Below, piece after piece: positions 1-4,754 of a DNA stretch of 4,754 nt. The stretch is from IMG/VR virus record IMGVR_UViG_2695420685_000007. One strand, given 5' to 3'. Source of the DNA: a virus (taxonomy: Duplodnaviria; Heunggongvirae; Uroviricota; Caudoviricetes). A program made the translations under genes and the position numbers. Numbering within the stretch: the first letter of the stretch is position 1; each line of letters opens with the position of its first letter. The notes under the pieces are model-generated. The model had not been told where the DNA came from, did no database searches, and was given only the letters and a program-made list of their open reading frames with translations.

Positions 1-2391
1 GCGGGGATTTCCGTCGGGCAGTATAAAGCCGCCATGCGTATGCTGCCTGCACAGTTCACCGACGTGGCCACGCAGCTTGCAGGCGGGCAAAGTCCGTGGC
101 TGATCCTGCTGCAACAGGGTGGTCAGGTTAAGGACTCCTTCGGCGGGATGATCCCCATGTTCAGGGGGCTTGCCGGTGCGATCACCCTGCCGATGGTCGG
201 GGCCACCTCGCTGGCGGTGGCGACCGGTGCGCTGGCGTATGCCTGGTATCAGGGCAACTCAACCCTGTCCGATTTCAACAAAACGCTGGTCCTTTCCGGC
301 AATCAGTCGGGTCTGACGGCAGATCGCATGCTGGTCCTGTCCAGATCCGGGCAGGCGGCAGGGCTGACGTTTAACCAGACCAGCGAGTCACTCAGCGCAC
401 TGGTTAAGGCGGGAGTAAGCGGTGAGGCTCAGATTGCATCCATCAGCCAGAGTGTGGCGCGTTTCTCCTCTGCATCCGGCGTGGAGGTGGACAAGGTCGC
501 TGAAGCCTTCGGGAAGCTGACCACAGACCCGACGTCAGGGCTGACAGCGATGGCACGCCAGTTCCATAACGTGACGGCGGAGCAGATTGCGTATGTTGCT
601 CAGTTGCAGCGTTCCGGCGATGAAGCCGGGGCATTGCAGGCGGCGAACGAGGCCGCAACGAAAGGGTTTGATGACCAGACCCGACGCCTGAAAGAGAACA
701 TGGGCACGCTGGAAACCTGGGCAGACAGGACAGCACGGGCATTCAAATCCATGTGGGATGCGGTGCTGGATATTGGTCGTCCTGATACCGCTCAGGAGAT
801 GCTGATTAAGGCAGAGGCTGCGTTTAAGAAAGCGGACGACATCTGGAATCTGCGCAAGGATGATTATTTTGTTAACGATGAAGCGCGGGCGCGTTACTGG
901 GATGATCGTGAAAAGGCCCGTCTTGCGCTTGAAGCCGCCCGAAAGAAGGCTGAACAGCAGAGTCAACAGGACAAAAATGCGCAGCAGCAGAGCGATACCG
1001 AAGCATCACGGCTGAAATATACCGAAGAGGCGCAGAAGGCTTACGAACGGCTGCAGACACCGCTGGAGAAATATACCGCCCGTCAGGAAGAACTGAACAA
1101 GGCACTGAAAGACGGGAAAATCCTGCAGGCAGATTACAACACGCTGATGGCGGCGGCGAAAAAGGATTATGAAGCGACGCTGAAAAAGCCGAAACAGTCC
1201 GGCGTGAAGGTGTCTGCGGGCGATCGTCAGGAAGACAGTGCTCATGCTGCCCTGCTGACGCTTCAGGCAGAACTCCGGACGCTGGAGAAGCATGCCGGAG
1301 CGAATGAGAAAATCAGCCAGCAGCGCCGGGATTTGTGGAAGGCGGAAAATCAGTTCGCGGTACTGGAGGAGGCGGCACAACGTCGCCAGCTGTCTGCACA
1401 GGAGAAATCCCTGCTGGCGCATAAAGATGAGACGCTGGAGTACAAACGCCAGCTGGCTGTACTTGGCGATAAGGTCACGTATCAGGAGCGCCTGAACGCG
1501 CTGGCGCAGCAGGCGGATAAATTCGCACAGCAGCAACGGGCAAAACGGGCCGCCATTGATGCGAAAAGCCGGGGGCTGACTGACCGGCAGGCAGAACGGG
1601 AAGCCACGGAACAGCGCCTGAAGGAACAGTATGGCGATAATCCGCTGGCGCTGAATAACGTCATGTCAGAGCAGAAAAAGACCTGGGCGGCTGAAGACCA
1701 GCTTCGCGGGAGCTGGATGGCAGGCCTGAAGTCCGGCTGGAGTGAGTGGGAAGATAGCGCCACGGACAGTATGTCGCAGGTAAAAAGTGCAGCCACGCAG
1801 ACCTTTGATGGTATTGCGCAGAATATGGCGGCGATGCTGACCGGCAGTGAGCAGAACTGGCGCAGCTTCACCCGTTCCGTGCTGTCCATGATGACAGAAA
1901 TTCTGCTTAAGCAGGCAATGGTGGGGATTGTCGGGAGTATCGGCAGCGCCATTGGCGGGGCTGTTGGTGGCGGCGCATCAGCGTCAGGCGGTACAGCCAT
2001 TCAGGCAGCTGCGGCGAAATTCCATTTTGCGACCGGAGGATTTACGGGAACCGGCGGCAAATATGAGCCAGCGGGGATTGTTCATCGTGGTGAATTTGTC
2101 TTCACGAAGGAGGCAACCAGCCGGATTGGTGTCGGCAACCTGTACCGCCTGATGCGGGGCTATGCGGAAGGTGGTTATGTGGGCGGTGCCGGAAGTCCGG
2201 CGCAGATGCGGCGGGCTGAAGGCATTAATTTTAATCAGAACAACAACGTGGTGATTCAGAACGACGGTACGAATGGTCTGCCAGGTCCACAGATGATGAA
2301 GGCAGTGTATGACATGGCCCGCAAGGGTGCCCGTGATGAAATTCAGACACAGATGCGTGATGGTGGCCTGTTCTCCGGAGGTGGACGATGA
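1..2391 (+). CDS. H: Tail tape measure protein (lambda gpH-like), 5'-partial: the reading frame is open from base 1 and the real start lies upstream of the window
   Basis: Frame 1 is open from position 1 (AGISVGQYKAAMRM...) to TGA at 2389-2391, so the ATG at 34 in the ORF track is internal. Protein shows an N-terminal hydrophobic segment, a long charged Ala/Gln/Lys/Glu/Arg-rich helical region, a Gly-rich tract and a ...MRDGGLFSGGGR C-terminus, and I recognise it as lambda gpH. Position directly upstream of M-L-K-I matches lambda gene order. Confidence 0.94.
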   Translation, partial: AGISVGQYKAAMRMLPAQFTDVATQLAGGQSPWLILLQQGGQVKDSFGGMIPMFRGLAGAITLPMVGATSLAVATGALAYAWYQGNSTLSDFNKTLVLSGNQSGLTADRMLVLSRSGQAAGLTFNQTSESLSALVKAGVSGEAQIASISQSVARFSSASGVEVDKVAEAFGKLTTDPTSGLTAMARQFHNVTAEQIAYVAQLQRSGDEAGALQAANEAATKGFDDQTRRLKENMGTLETWADRTARAFKSMWDAVLDIGRPDTAQEMLIKAEAAFKKADDIWNLRKDDYFVNDEARARYWDDREKARLALEAARKKAEQQSQQDKNAQQQSDTEASRLKYTEEAQKAYERLQTPLEKYTARQEELNKALKDGKILQADYNTLMAAAKKDYEATLKKPKQSGVKVSAGDRQEDSAHAALLTLQAELRTLEKHAGANEKISQQRRDLWKAENQFAVLEEAAQRRQLSAQEKSLLAHKDETLEYKRQLAVLGDKVTYQERLNALAQQADKFAQQQRAKRAAIDAKSRGLTDRQAEREATEQRLKEQYGDNPLALNNVMSEQKKTWAAEDQLRGSWMAGLKSGWSEWEDSATDSMSQVKSAATQTFDGIAQNMAAMLTGSEQNWRSFTRSVLSMMTEILLKQAMVGIVGSIGSAIGGAVGGGASASGGTAIQAAAAKFHFATGGFTGTGGKYEPAGIVHRGEFVFTKEATSRIGVGNLYRLMRGYAEGGYVGGAGSPAQMRRAEGINFNQNNNVVIQNDGTNGLPGPQMMKAVYDMARKGARDEIQTQMRDGGLFSGGGR
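2377..2385 (+). promoter_or_regulatory. Ribosome-binding site for M (GGAGGTGGA), embedded in the 3' end of H
   Basis: GGAGG core at 2377-2381, 6 nt upstream of the M ATG at 2388. The H stop overlaps the M start (ATGA), consistent with translational coupling. Confidence 0.6.
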
Positions 2392-2717
2392 AAACCTTCC
2401 GCTGGAAAGTGAAACCTGGTATGGATGTGGCTTCGGTCCCTTCCGTAAGAAAGGTGCGCTTTGGTGATGGCTATTCCCAGCGAGCGCCTGCCGGGCTGAA
2501 TGCCAACCTGAAAACGTACAGCGTGACGCTTTCTGTCCCCCGTGAGGAGGCCACGGTACTGGAGTCGTTTCTGGCTGAGCACGGGGGCTGGAAAGCCTTT
2601 CTGTGGACGCCGCCTTATGAGTGGCGGCAGATAAAGGTGACCTGCGCAAAATGGTCGTCGCGGGTCAGTATGCTGCGTGTTGAGTTCAGCGCAGAGTTTG
2701 AACAGGTGGTGAACTGA
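2388..2717 (+). CDS. M: Tail tip assembly / minor tail protein M (lambda gpM-like), 109 aa
   Basis: ORF 2388-2717, 109 aa, MKTFRWKVKPGMDVASVPSVRKVRFGDGYSQRAP..., recognised as lambda gpM. Its ATG (2388-2390) overlaps the H stop TGA (2389-2391), and a strong Shine-Dalgarno GGAGGTGGA sits at 2377-2385. Confidence 0.94.
   Translation: MKTFRWKVKPGMDVASVPSVRKVRFGDGYSQRAPAGLNANLKTYSVTLSVPREEATVLESFLAEHGGWKAFLWTPPYEWRQIKVTCAKWSSRVSMLRVEFSAEFEQVVN
2704..2712 (+). promoter_or_regulatory. Ribosome-binding site for L (AGGTGGTGA), embedded in the 3' end of M
   Basis: 8 of 9 match to AGGAGGTGA, 4 nt upstream of the L ATG at 2717. The M stop and L start overlap (TGATG). Confidence 0.6.
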
Positions 2718-3415
2718 TGCAGGATATCCGGCAGGAAACACTGAATGAATGCACCCGTGCGGAGCAGTCGGCCAGCGTGGTGCTCTGGGAAATCGACCTG
2801 ACAGAGGTCGGTGGAGAACGTTATTTTTTCTGTAATGAGCAGAACGAAAAAGGTGAGCCGGTCACCTGGCAGGGGCGACAGTATCAGCCGTATCCCATTC
2901 AGGGGACGGGATTTGAACTGAACGGCAAGGGCAGTGCTGCCCGTCCGACACTGACGGTTTCTAACCTGCACGGCATGGTCACCGGGATGGCGGAAGATCT
3001 GCAGAGTCTGGTCGGCGGAACGGTGGTCCGGCGTAAGGTTTACGCCCGTTTTCTGGATGCGGTGAACTTCGTCAACGGAAACAGTGACGCCGACCCGGAG
3101 CAGGAGGTGATCAGCCGCTGGCGCATCGAGCAGTGCAGCGAACTGAGCGCGGTCAGTGCCTCTTTTGTACTGGCCACGCCGACGGAAACGGACGGCGCTG
3201 TTTTTCCGGGACGTATCATGCTGGCCCACACCTGCACCTGGACCTATCGCGGCGATGAGTGCGGTTATCACGGTCCGGCGGTCGCGGATGAATATGACCA
3301 GCCAACGTCCGATATCACGAAGGATAAATGCAGCAAATGCCTGAGCGGTTGTAAGTTCCGCAATAACGTCGGCAACTTTGGCGGCTTCCTTTCCATTAAC
3401 AAACTTTCGCAGTAA
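2717..3415 (+). CDS. L: Tail tip protein L (lambda gpL-like), 232 aa, with a C-terminal cysteine cluster
   Basis: ORF 2717-3415, 232 aa, MQDIRQETLNECTRAEQSASVVLWEIDL..., recognised as lambda gpL. Its ATG (2717-2719) overlaps the M stop TGA (2715-2717) by 1 nt, and AGGTGGTGA at 2704-2712 is a near-consensus Shine-Dalgarno. Cys residues at protein positions 173, 182, 205, 208 and 212. Confidence 0.94.
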   Translation: MQDIRQETLNECTRAEQSASVVLWEIDLTEVGGERYFFCNEQNEKGEPVTWQGRQYQPYPIQGTGFELNGKGSAARPTLTVSNLHGMVTGMAEDLQSLVGGTVVRRKVYARFLDAVNFVNGNSDADPEQEVISRWRIEQCSELSAVSASFVLATPTETDGAVFPGRIMLAHTCTWTYRGDECGYHGPAVADEYDQPTSDITKDKCSKCLSGCKFRNNVGNFGGFLSINKLSQ

Positions 3416-3420
3416 ATCCC

Positions 3421-4164
3421 ATGACACAGACAGAATCAGCAATTCTGGCGCACGCCCGGCGATGTGCGCCAGCGGAGTCGTGCGGCTTCGTGGTAAGCAC
3501 GCCGGAGCGGGAAAGATATTTCCCCTGCGTGAATATCTCCGGTGAGCCGGAGGCGTATTTCCGGATGGCTCCGGAGGACTGGCTGCGGGCAGAAATGCAG
3601 GGTGAGATTGTGGCGCTGGTCCACAGTCACCCCGGTGCTCTGCCCTGGCTGAGTGAGGCCGACCGGCGGCTGCAGGTGCAGAGTGATTTGCCGTGGTGGC
3701 TGGTCTGCCGGGGGGCGATTCACAAGTTCCGCTGTGTGCCACATCTTACCGGGCGGCGCTTTGAGCACGGGGTGACGGACTGTTACACGCTGTTCCGGGA
3801 TGCTTACCATCTGGCGGGAATTGAGATGCCTGATTTTCATCGTGAGGATGACTGGTGGCGTCACGGTCAGAATCTCTATCTGGATAATCTGGAGGCCACA
3901 GGGCTGTATCAGGTGCCGTTGTCAGCGGCGCAGCCGGGCGACGTGCTGCTGTGCTGCTTTGGTTCATCGGTGCCGAATCATGCCGCCATTTACTGTGGTG
4001 ACGGCGAGCTGCTGCACCATATTCCTGAACAACTGAGCAAACGAGAGAGGTATACCGACAAATGGCAGCGACGCACACACTCCCTCTGGCGTCACCGGGC
4101 ATGGCGCGCATCTGCCTTTACGGGGATTTACAACGATTTGGCCGCCGCATCGACCTTCGTGTGA
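3421..4164 (+). CDS. K: Tail tip assembly protein K (lambda gpK-like), 247 aa long form: N-terminal JAMM/MPN (JAB) metalloprotease-like domain fused to a C-terminal NlpC/P60 cysteine peptidase-like domain
   Basis: ORF 3421-4164. The frame opens after a TAA at 3397-3399 and the first ATG is 3421, 5 nt after the L stop. JAMM signature readable in the protein: Glu20 (AESCGF), then His68-x-His70-x7-Ser78-x2-Asp81 (VHSHPGALPWLSEAD, nt 3622-3663). NlpC/P60-like residues: Cys121 (GVTDCYTLF, nt 3781-3783), His187 (NHAAIY, nt 3979-3981), His199. An alternative internal in-frame start at 3565 would give the 199-aa form that, as I recall, is the historical lambda K annotation. Confidence 0.88.
   Translation: MTQTESAILAHARRCAPAESCGFVVSTPERERYFPCVNISGEPEAYFRMAPEDWLRAEMQGEIVALVHSHPGALPWLSEADRRLQVQSDLPWWLVCRGAIHKFRCVPHLTGRRFEHGVTDCYTLFRDAYHLAGIEMPDFHREDDWWRHGQNLYLDNLEATGLYQVPLSAAQPGDVLLCCFGSSVPNHAAIYCGDGELLHHIPEQLSKRERYTDKWQRRTHSLWRHRAWRASAFTGIYNDLAAASTFV
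3549..3553 (+). promoter_or_regulatory. Internal Shine-Dalgarno (GGAGG) upstream of the in-frame ATG at 3565 inside K
   Basis: GGAGG at 3549-3553 with an 11-nt spacer to ATG 3565-3567, which is codon 49 of the long K ORF. The 3421 ATG has no recognisable SD in the preceding 20 nt (aaactttcgcagtaaatccc). Confidence 0.4.
4043..4050 (+). promoter_or_regulatory. Ribosome-binding site for I (GAGAGAGG), inside the 3' part of K
   Basis: Purine-rich GAGAGAGG with an 11-nt spacer to the I ATG at 4062. Confidence 0.45.
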
Positions 4165-4733
4165 AAACGGGGGCTGAAGCCATTCGGGCGCTGGCCACAC
4201 AGCTCCCGGCGTTTCGTCATAAACTGAGCGACGGCTGGTATCAGGTACGGATTTCCGGGCGGGACGTCAGCACGTCCGGATTGACGGCGCAGTTACATGA
4301 GGTTCTGCCTGACGGCGCTGTGATTCATATTGTTCCCAGAGTCGCCGGGGCCAAGTCAGGGGGCGTATTCCAGATTGTTCTGGGGGCTGCCGCCATTGCC
4401 GGATCATTCTTTACTGCCGGAGCCACCCTTGCAGCATGGGGGGCAGCCATTGGGGCCGGTGGTATGACCGGTATCCTGTTTTCTCTCGGTGCCAGTATGG
4501 TACTTGGTGGTGTGGCGCAGATGCTGGCACCGAAAGCCAGAACTCCCCGTACACAGACAACGGATAACGGTAAGCAGAACACCTATTTCTCCTCACTGGA
4601 TAACATGGTTGCCCAGGGCAATGTTCTGCCTGTTCTGTACGGTGAAATGCGCGTGGGGTCACGTGTGGTTTCTCAGGAGATCAGCACGGCAGACGAAGGG
4701 GATGGTGGTCAGGTTGTGGTGATTGGTCGCTGA
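4062..4733 (+). CDS. I: Tail tip assembly protein I (lambda gpI-like), 223 aa; N-terminal ubiquitin-like region followed by a Gly/Ala-rich hydrophobic segment
   Basis: ORF 4062-4733, 223 aa, MAATHTLPLASPGMARICLYGDLQRFGRRIDLRVKTGAEAIRALATQLP..., recognised as lambda gpI. Shine-Dalgarno-like GAGAGAGG at 4043-4050. Start lies 103 nt inside the K ORF in the -1 frame relative to K. The stop at 4731-4733 is followed by a short spacer toward J, outside the window. Confidence 0.92.
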   Translation: MAATHTLPLASPGMARICLYGDLQRFGRRIDLRVKTGAEAIRALATQLPAFRHKLSDGWYQVRISGRDVSTSGLTAQLHEVLPDGAVIHIVPRVAGAKSGGVFQIVLGAAAIAGSFFTAGATLAAWGAAIGAGGMTGILFSLGASMVLGGVAQMLAPKARTPRTQTTDNGKQNTYFSSLDNMVAQGNVLPVLYGEMRVGSRVVSQEISTADEGDGGQVVVIGR

Positions 4734-4754
4734 TGCAAAACATTTTATGTGAAA

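Follow-up and report, generated by a model that had tools for sequence, protein, structure and literature searches.

The locus examined here raises the question of what a phage tail tip assembly protein, the product of gene K, does with two fused peptidase active sites, one of the JAB/JAMM type and one of the NlpC/P60 type, and whether the ubiquitin-like protein encoded by the next gene, I, is the substrate of one of them. The window, by which we mean the whole 4,754-nt stretch of DNA that was analysed, carries on its plus strand the tail-tip section of a lambda-type module of tail genes (Table 1). K lies between L and I in a siphovirus tail module; the L-K-I order of the window, followed by J, recurs in 12 diverse phages, while J of the window itself lies outside it, past its end. 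Protein I is 223 aa long, as annotated in lambda. No E1 or E2 gene was found in the tail module, either in the window or in the 12 diverse phages.

The DNA comes from a prophage in an E. coli chromosome, not from lambda itself. Lambdoid phages such as phage 21 match the window over its whole length at 96-97% identity, and a prophage in the E. coli chromosome NZ_CP062855.1 matches its K-I segment (window 3300-4754) at 100%. The segment is present in 4,409 of 5,426 complete E. coli genomes (81%), with a median of 3 copies in the carriers, where it is annotated as 'C40 family peptidase' and 'tail assembly protein'. As gene K of a lambda-like prophage, K here is ordinary, and it sits in a module that is among the commonest of E. 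coli prophages.

Table 1. Positions in the window of the tail genes and of the predicted functional elements of K and I
Feature	Position (nt)	Strand	Basis
H (tape measure, 3' part)	ORF to 2391	+	Pfam TMP_2 and Tape_meas_lam_C
M	2388..2717	+	Pfam Phage_min_tail
L	2717..3415	+	Pfam Phage_tail_L
K, 247-aa tail tip assembly protein	3421..4164, stop codon included	+	ORF list; Pfam Prok-JAB and NLPC_P60
K: JAB/JAMM (MPN+) metalloprotease domain, aa 3-98	3427..3714	+	Prok-JAB PF14464
K: Glu19 codon GAG, predicted catalytic Glu of the JAMM motif, in AESCG	3475..3477	+	
K: JAMM motif HSHPGALPWLSEAD, aa 68-81	3622..3663	+	pattern H-x-H-x7-S-x2-D
K: NlpC/P60 (C40) papain-like cysteine peptidase domain, aa 111-224	3751..4092	+	PF00877
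K: Cys121 codon TGT, predicted nucleophile	3781..3783	+	
K: His187 codon CAT, predicted catalytic His	3979..3981	+	
K: His199-His200 codons; His199 is the predicted third triad member	4015..4020	+	
K/I overlap, 103 nt, I in the -1 frame relative to K	4062..4164	+	ORF list; same overlap annotated in lambda
I, tail tip protein, predicted K substrate	4062..4733	+	Pfam Lambda_tail_I, E 1.6e-26
I: ubiquitin-like beta-grasp domain, ~aa 14-97	4101..4352	+	
I: C-terminal tail of the ubiquitin-like domain, PRVAGAKSGG, aa 92-101, predicted cleavage region	4335..4364	+	
I: part retained in the virion, Gly/Ala-rich hydrophobic helices, then plug and beta-strand domain	4365..4730	+	

A first-pass annotation of this DNA, made from its letters alone, had read K as a fusion of a JAMM and an NlpC/P60 peptidase and had named a profile search as one check. 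Pfam finds both domains in K, each above its curated cut-off: Prok-JAB (PF14464) with an E value of 6.2e-14 and 52.3 bits (cut-off 25), and NLPC_P60 (PF00877) with 5.8e-13 and 49.2 bits (cut-off 23), the latter match spanning profile positions 1-105 of 105. The residue assignments of that annotation also hold, with one correction. The JAMM motif lies exactly at nt 3622-3663 of the window, and Cys121 in GVTDCYTLF, His187 in NHAAIYCGDG and His199 in ELLHH are all where it had placed them; the catalytic Glu, which it had put at codon 20, is codon 19, codon 20 being Ser. The whole protein matches phrog_30, 'minor tail protein', at an E value of 1e-162. A single-sequence AlphaFold2 model of K had a mean pLDDT of 33 and was discarded.

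K carries a complete JAMM motif, consisting of E19 followed by H68-S-H70-x7-S78-x2-D81, in which His68, His70 and Asp81 are the predicted zinc ligands, with Ser78 probably acting alongside them. A profile built from the K family matches solved JAMM/MPN chains, among them 2kks (1.7e-13), 2kcq (3e-13) and the archaeal JAMM1 desampylase 5lda (5e-11), and in a residue-by-residue alignment E19, H68, H70, S78 and D81 pair with the motif residues of 2kks. The NCBIfam 'desampylase' model also matches K, below its cut-off. In the second domain, the order Cys, His and polar third residue (again a His) that characterizes NlpC/P60 peptidases is present and conserved, and the family profile also matches Spr (2k1g, 1.3e-7), MepS, CwlO and LytE, with a sub-threshold match of K to TIGR02219, 'putative phage cell wall peptidase'.

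Conservation was assessed over 106 diverse full-length homologues (mean 39% identity to the query) collected by an exhaustive representative search. The JAMM residues are kept in nearly all of them (E19 in 102, H68 in 103, H70 in 102, S78 in 97 with Thr in 7 more, D81 in 103), and so are those of the NlpC/P60 site (D120 in 102, C121 in 101, H187 in 103, H199 in 104, H200 in 98), which, on these counts, is as conserved as the JAMM site. Just 15 positions of K are at least 93% conserved in the same set, and eight of the 15 are motif residues, namely E19, H68, H70, D81, D120, C121, H187 and H199, a concentration far beyond chance. A second set comprised 92 loci, 12 from diverse phages and 80 from mostly Pseudomonas genomes, none of them P. 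aeruginosa. There, 91 loci retain Glu19 and the JAMM residues, and C121 and H187 are each present in all 92 by an alignment-based count; seven gaps at H199/H200 are probably alignment gaps beside insertions. This pattern points to strong purifying selection on both active sites. Judged by this selection, both domains are very probably catalytically competent, and the NlpC/P60 site, like the JAMM site, is predicted to be active in catalysis. K lacks a signal peptide and any hydrophobic segment (the highest 19-residue hydropathy is 1.18), as well as a lipobox and a cell-wall-binding domain.

The length of K deserves a comment, as the lambda reference (J02459/NC_001416) annotates it as a 199-aa protein (14276..14875) that follows L after a 148-nt gap. 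An alignment with the window shows the reference to be one G short (at window nt 3555, codon 45), which breaks an otherwise identical 247-aa frame, and the 199-aa form lacks Glu19 together with the opening strands of the JAB domain. The G is present, and the 247-aa frame open, in the independently sequenced lambda or lambda-derived genomes LC730321, PV340536, KT232076 and DE3 (EU078592), and a 22-mer of the reference type, with the G missing, had no match in IMG/VR viral contigs. It is the G missing from the 1982 reference sequence that gives lambda K its 199-aa annotation. This form has spread to many records, including clusters with thousands of members, and DE3 (199 aa) and KT232076 (a 211-aa form) are annotated short although their DNA carries the G.

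The candidate substrate is the product of the next gene. I of the window shares about 98% of its residues with the gpI chains of the lambda tail structures 8iyk, 8iyl, 8k35 and 8xcg; the PDB chains of 9e7m correspond to residues 133-222. Its ubiquitin-like N-terminal region, which the first-pass annotation had noted, is borne out as a beta-grasp by fold search, with SAMP1, MoaD and CysO as the top matches, so that I starts with a ubiquitin-like beta-grasp domain of the prokaryotic ThiS/MoaD/SAMP subtype. Profile comparison gave a fainter signal: for an 88-residue N-terminal profile from 13 phages, the best PDB match other than gpI was the ThiS/MoaD chain 4n6e_B, at an E value of only 0.12, and one I family member matched Pfam ThiS at 0.018. 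A PSI-BLAST link of the N-terminus to ThiS/MoaD had already been published (PMC1779556).

The last strand of this domain comprises aa 87-92 and runs into the tail PRVAGAKSGG. Across 12 diverse phages P92 does not vary and G96 hardly does; in a set of 45 sequences both G96 and G101 are invariant; and 76 of the 77 I proteins surveyed contain the pattern P-x3-G-[SAG]-K-x-x-G. In mEp021 the domain ends in ...PVVEGG, with a hydrophobic segment directly after, an end that resembles the Gly-Gly ends of MoaD and ThiS. The hydropathy of the window's I peaks at approximately aa 102-123 and 138-156.

This architecture, and the hypothesis that follows from it, were known before, predicted in 2003-2006 and reported from experiment in 2025. 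Lambda K was listed in 2003 as a JAMM protein of unknown function (PMC300881). In 2006, Iyer, Burroughs and Aravind described TAPK as a JAB plus NlpC/P60 protein and TAPI as having a ubiquitin-like domain with a conserved C-terminal glycine, noted that TAPK/TAPI adjacency is conserved, and proposed that I loses its ubiquitin-like domain through cleavage by the JAB domain of K (PMC1779556). A 2025 meeting report states that the Davidson lab has demonstrated cleavage of gpI by gpK and credits the 'deubiquitinating domain' of K (PMC12908700); our literature search found this conference report and no full paper on the gpK-gpI cleavage.

Virion data agree with removal of the N-terminus. By cryo-EM and mass spectrometry, lambda virions contain gpI, and gpK was not found in them (PMC10721106, PMC12617516). 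The virion gpI has been modelled from residue 135 (PMC10721106) or 134 (PMC12617516), and in the closed tip it has been modelled from residue 101 (PMC11101478). In the published models the retained part, which runs to residue 223, lies inside the tail tip. In F-pyocin, a 2026 preprint reports that the N-terminus of PA0640, the gpI homologue, is present in stalled tips and absent from mature particles, that deletion of PA0639, the gpK homologue, yields tip-less tubes, and that the gpK homologue is not found in the mature F-pyocin. Its authors name no protease for PA0640. They also report that the N-terminus is lost when PA0640 is expressed alone in E. coli, and some of the trimming could therefore be non-specific. 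The suggestion of the first-pass annotation that gpK processes gpI during tip assembly is thus supported, matching the 2006 prediction (PMC1779556) and the virion data; its remark that biochemistry has yet to resolve the step has been overtaken by the 2025 meeting report (PMC12908700).

Taken together, the data are best described by a model in which K is a cytoplasmic assembly enzyme with two independent peptidase sites that is not kept in the virion. I would be synthesised as a ubiquitin-like leader (~aa 14-97) followed by hydrophobic helices and a plug/beta-strand domain. At the nascent J-I-L tip, K would bind the beta-grasp of I through its JAB domain and take the tail P92-A97 into the zinc site of that domain, where JAMM chemistry (zinc held by His68, His70 and Asp81, with Glu19 as general base and a contribution from Ser78) would cut a linear peptide bond within P92-R-V-A-G96-A97-K-S-G-G101. 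The leader and K would then leave, the hydrophobic-helix and plug part of I would stay inside the tail tip, and the cut would act as a checkpoint in stepwise tip assembly. The roles given here to single residues of K are those expected from the motif. The scissile bond lies most likely at or just after Gly96-Ala97, because G96 is the most conserved glycine of the tail, because mEp021 has only this Gly-Gly, and because the gpI density starts at residue 101, which would be lost if the cut fell after Gly101 (PMC11101478). We give a probability of roughly 0.85 to this explanation as a whole, that is, to removal of the ubiquitin-like leader of I by the JAB domain as an assembly checkpoint, with the NlpC/P60 site as a second site predicted to be active.

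Which of the two sites cuts I, and what the other one does, can be read differently. The NlpC/P60 site might itself remove the ubiquitin-like domain of I in the manner of papain-fold deubiquitinases, leaving the JAB domain to bind; its Cys-His-His triad matches the JAMM motif in conservation, and Iyer et al. raised NlpC/P60 processing of the ubiquitin-like protein as a possibility (PMC1779556). We regard this as very unlikely. A JAB domain that only binds would not need all five catalytic and zinc residues at ~97% conservation, its closest relatives are enzymes that cut after ThiS/MoaD/SAMP-type domains, and the meeting report assigns the activity to the 'deubiquitinating domain' of K (PMC12908700). 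By analogy, JAB rather than NlpC/P60 is the probable cutting site of I. A cell-wall role for the NlpC/P60 domain, as a peptidoglycan DL-endopeptidase that aids DNA entry or lysis, is suggested by its nearest solved relatives, the peptidoglycan endopeptidases Spr/MepS, CwlO and LytE, by the below-threshold match to TIGR02219, and by the fact that the lambda enzyme breaching peptidoglycan is unidentified (PMC11101478). Such a role nevertheless seems improbable: gpK was found in lambda virions neither by mass spectrometry nor by cryo-EM, its homologue was not found in mature F-pyocin, and K is without signal peptide or hydrophobic segment. With no export signal and no place in the virion, K has no evident route to the cell wall. 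Another use for the NlpC/P60 site, which we consider possible if still unlikely, would be that of a second assembly protease acting on a tail protein, either in the conversion of gpH to gpH* or in a second cut of I. How gpH cleavage is catalysed is stated as unknown in the Ur-lambda paper (PMC12617516). The NlpC/P60 active site is conserved, K is cytoplasmic and transient, and the glycine-rich C-terminal cleavage region of gpH resembles the linker of I in being Gly/Ala-rich. Against gpH as the target, lambda genetics puts its cleavage at a late stage, once the tube has polymerised, and the action of K at an early one, at the tip; moreover, the usual targets of NlpC/P60 enzymes are peptidoglycan stem peptides or lipids, not proteins. 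Were a second protein-directed protease present after all, one transient enzyme would control two proteolytic checkpoints in tip assembly.

The overlap of the two genes invites yet another reading, in which a programmed -1 ribosomal frameshift within it yields a K-I fusion of enzyme and substrate. I is in the -1 frame of K, and PHROG families 28576 and 35166, together with several database proteins, resemble K-I fusions. However, the fusion junctions all differ, several with internal deletions, and the fusions fall nearly all into clusters of 1-2 members, against thousands for the 247-aa form. The overlap itself is not conserved in distant relatives, where it is absent or 8-58 nt long and K and I are often separated by unrelated genes; the two lie a median of 1,285 nt apart in the 77 loci that yielded an I. 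A programmed frameshift was rejected on these grounds (heterogeneous junctions, rare fusions and lack of conservation of the overlap), and we consider it barely credible.

Removal of the leader of I by the JAB domain of K, the reading we prefer, would make the K/I pair a clear case of a ubiquitin-like domain and a JAB peptidase cooperating outside eukaryotes, here in timing a step in the building of a virus tail. The pair is relevant to where deubiquitinases came from in evolution, to the way hydrophobic tail-tip proteins are restrained before assembly, and to the engineering of phage tails and F-type tailocins. Nothing in the K/I pair of this window is new in itself; it is textbook-level lambda biology. 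Lambda gpK (TAPK; LC730321, PV340536, KT232076 and DE3) has the same residue as the window's K at 240 of 247 positions, the seven substitutions falling at no catalytic residue, and lambda shares with the window the JAB plus NlpC/P60 architecture, the L-K-I order and the 103-nt K/I overlap.

Beyond lambda, the closest parallels are prokaryotic. The archaeal JAMM1 desampylase has the E...HxHx7Sx2D motif in common with K and is recovered in the profile matches (5lda/5ld9), and I, with SAMP1, MoaD and CysO as its top fold matches, is of the same beta-grasp subtype as the partners of prokaryotic JAMM peptidases. Mec+ of M. tuberculosis, acting with CysO, and QbsD of Pseudomonas, acting with QbsE, are JAMM peptidases that cut after ubiquitin-like domains. 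In the prokaryotic JAMM systems the ubiquitin-like protein carries sulfur or is conjugated as a modifier, and works with an E1-like enzyme; in K/I, in contrast, the ubiquitin-like part is the N-terminal leader of a structural protein, and a single linear cut, with no E1 or E2, is proposed. The JAMM zinc site predicted in K is the same as that of the eukaryotic MPN+ deubiquitinases Rpn11, CSN5 and AMSH. With the NlpC/P60 DL-endopeptidases MepS/Spr of E. coli and CwlO and LytE of B. subtilis, K shares a full-length Pfam match and the same Cys-His-His order, but it differs from them in its cytoplasmic location, its absence from the virion and its fusion to a JAB domain. Bil-type bacterial ubiquitin-like conjugation likewise includes a JAB deubiquitinase and serves in defence, whereas the K/I pair is encoded by the phage and promotes its assembly.

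Alignment of the K gene with the 1982 lambda reference (J02459/NC_001416) revealed that one G, at window position 3555 in codon 45 of K, is missing from the reference (about position 983 of locus L013). The absence of this base breaks the 247-aa K frame in that record and accounts for the widely copied 199-aa K annotation, in which K loses its predicted catalytic Glu19 together with the first part of the JAB domain. Four genomes of lambda or lambda derivatives that were sequenced independently (LC730321, PV340536, KT232076, and DE3 EU078592) carry the G, as the window does, and a reference-type 22-mer without the G has zero matches among IMG/VR viral contigs.

The K and I genes overlap in different frames, and the databases hold "K-I fusion" proteins as well as two corresponding PHROG families (28576 and 35166). 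Programmed frameshifting that joins K and I is disfavored because the fusion junctions are heterogeneous and nearly all of the fusions are clusters of 1-2 members; the fusions look like indels or assembly errors instead. We note that the long K/I overlap is restricted to lambda-like phages.

The start codon of I is ambiguous, with two candidates in the window. A GAGAGAGG stretch, recognized by eye, lies ∼11 nt 5′ of the upstream ATG. The database cluster for the 210-aa form has 5,268 members vs 1,140 for the 223-aa form, and the I homologues of distant phages start close to the equivalent of Met14. In the predicted model, residues 1-13 are mostly of low confidence, with pLDDT <50 for residues 1-6.

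Upstream of I, the genes are tightly packed: the stop codon of H and the start codon of M overlap as ATGA (window 2388-2391), a single base (window 2717) is common to the M stop and the L start, and 5 nt separate the L stop from the K start (window 3413-3423), a segment with no obvious Shine-Dalgarno sequence before K. Taken together, this arrangement suggests that H, M, L, and K are translationally coupled.

Unrelated inserted genes often separate K from I, as in four of the diverse phages (L001, L004, L005, and L006) and most of the Pseudomonas loci (L018-L097), and across the 77 loci with an identified I, the two genes lie a median of 1,285 nt apart. The insert of Pseudomonas phage OQ658364 codes for two proteins, one of 80 aa that is hydrophobic and one of 138 aa with an N-terminus (MKKLIGLAMLMALVGCS) that looks like a lipoprotein signal. 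Such inserts may be accessory genes (morons), e.g., superinfection-exclusion factors. Phage mEp021 carries an insertion on the other side of I; its short I protein, of 176 aa, has no K-S-G-G segment, and the ubiquitin-like domain therefore terminates directly as ...PVVEGG.

Locations of the K/I overlap, candidate I starts, and inserted genes
Feature	Location	Remark
K/I overlap	window 4062-4164	103 nt; I in -1 frame
I, 223-aa form	window, ATG 4062	start annotated in lambda
I, 210-aa form	window, ATG 4101	Met14; larger database cluster
Insert between K and I	L005 3254-4003	unrelated genes
Putative HNH endonuclease gene	L002 (phage mEp021) 3721-4287	inserted between I and J

The C-terminal part of L contains a cysteine cluster (HTCTW, DECGY, and DKCSKCLSGC; window about 3250-3370) that corresponds to the iron-sulfur cluster site published for both lambda gpL and F-pyocin PA0638. 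In F-pyocin maturation, the gpI homologue PA0640 loses its N-terminus by a mechanism that the authors declare unknown, and the gpK homologue PA0639 is handled only as a "maturation factor" (bioRxiv 10.64898/2026.02.24.707460). If the analogy to K and I is followed, the obvious candidate for the protease that removes the PA0640 N-terminus would be the PA0639 JAB domain.
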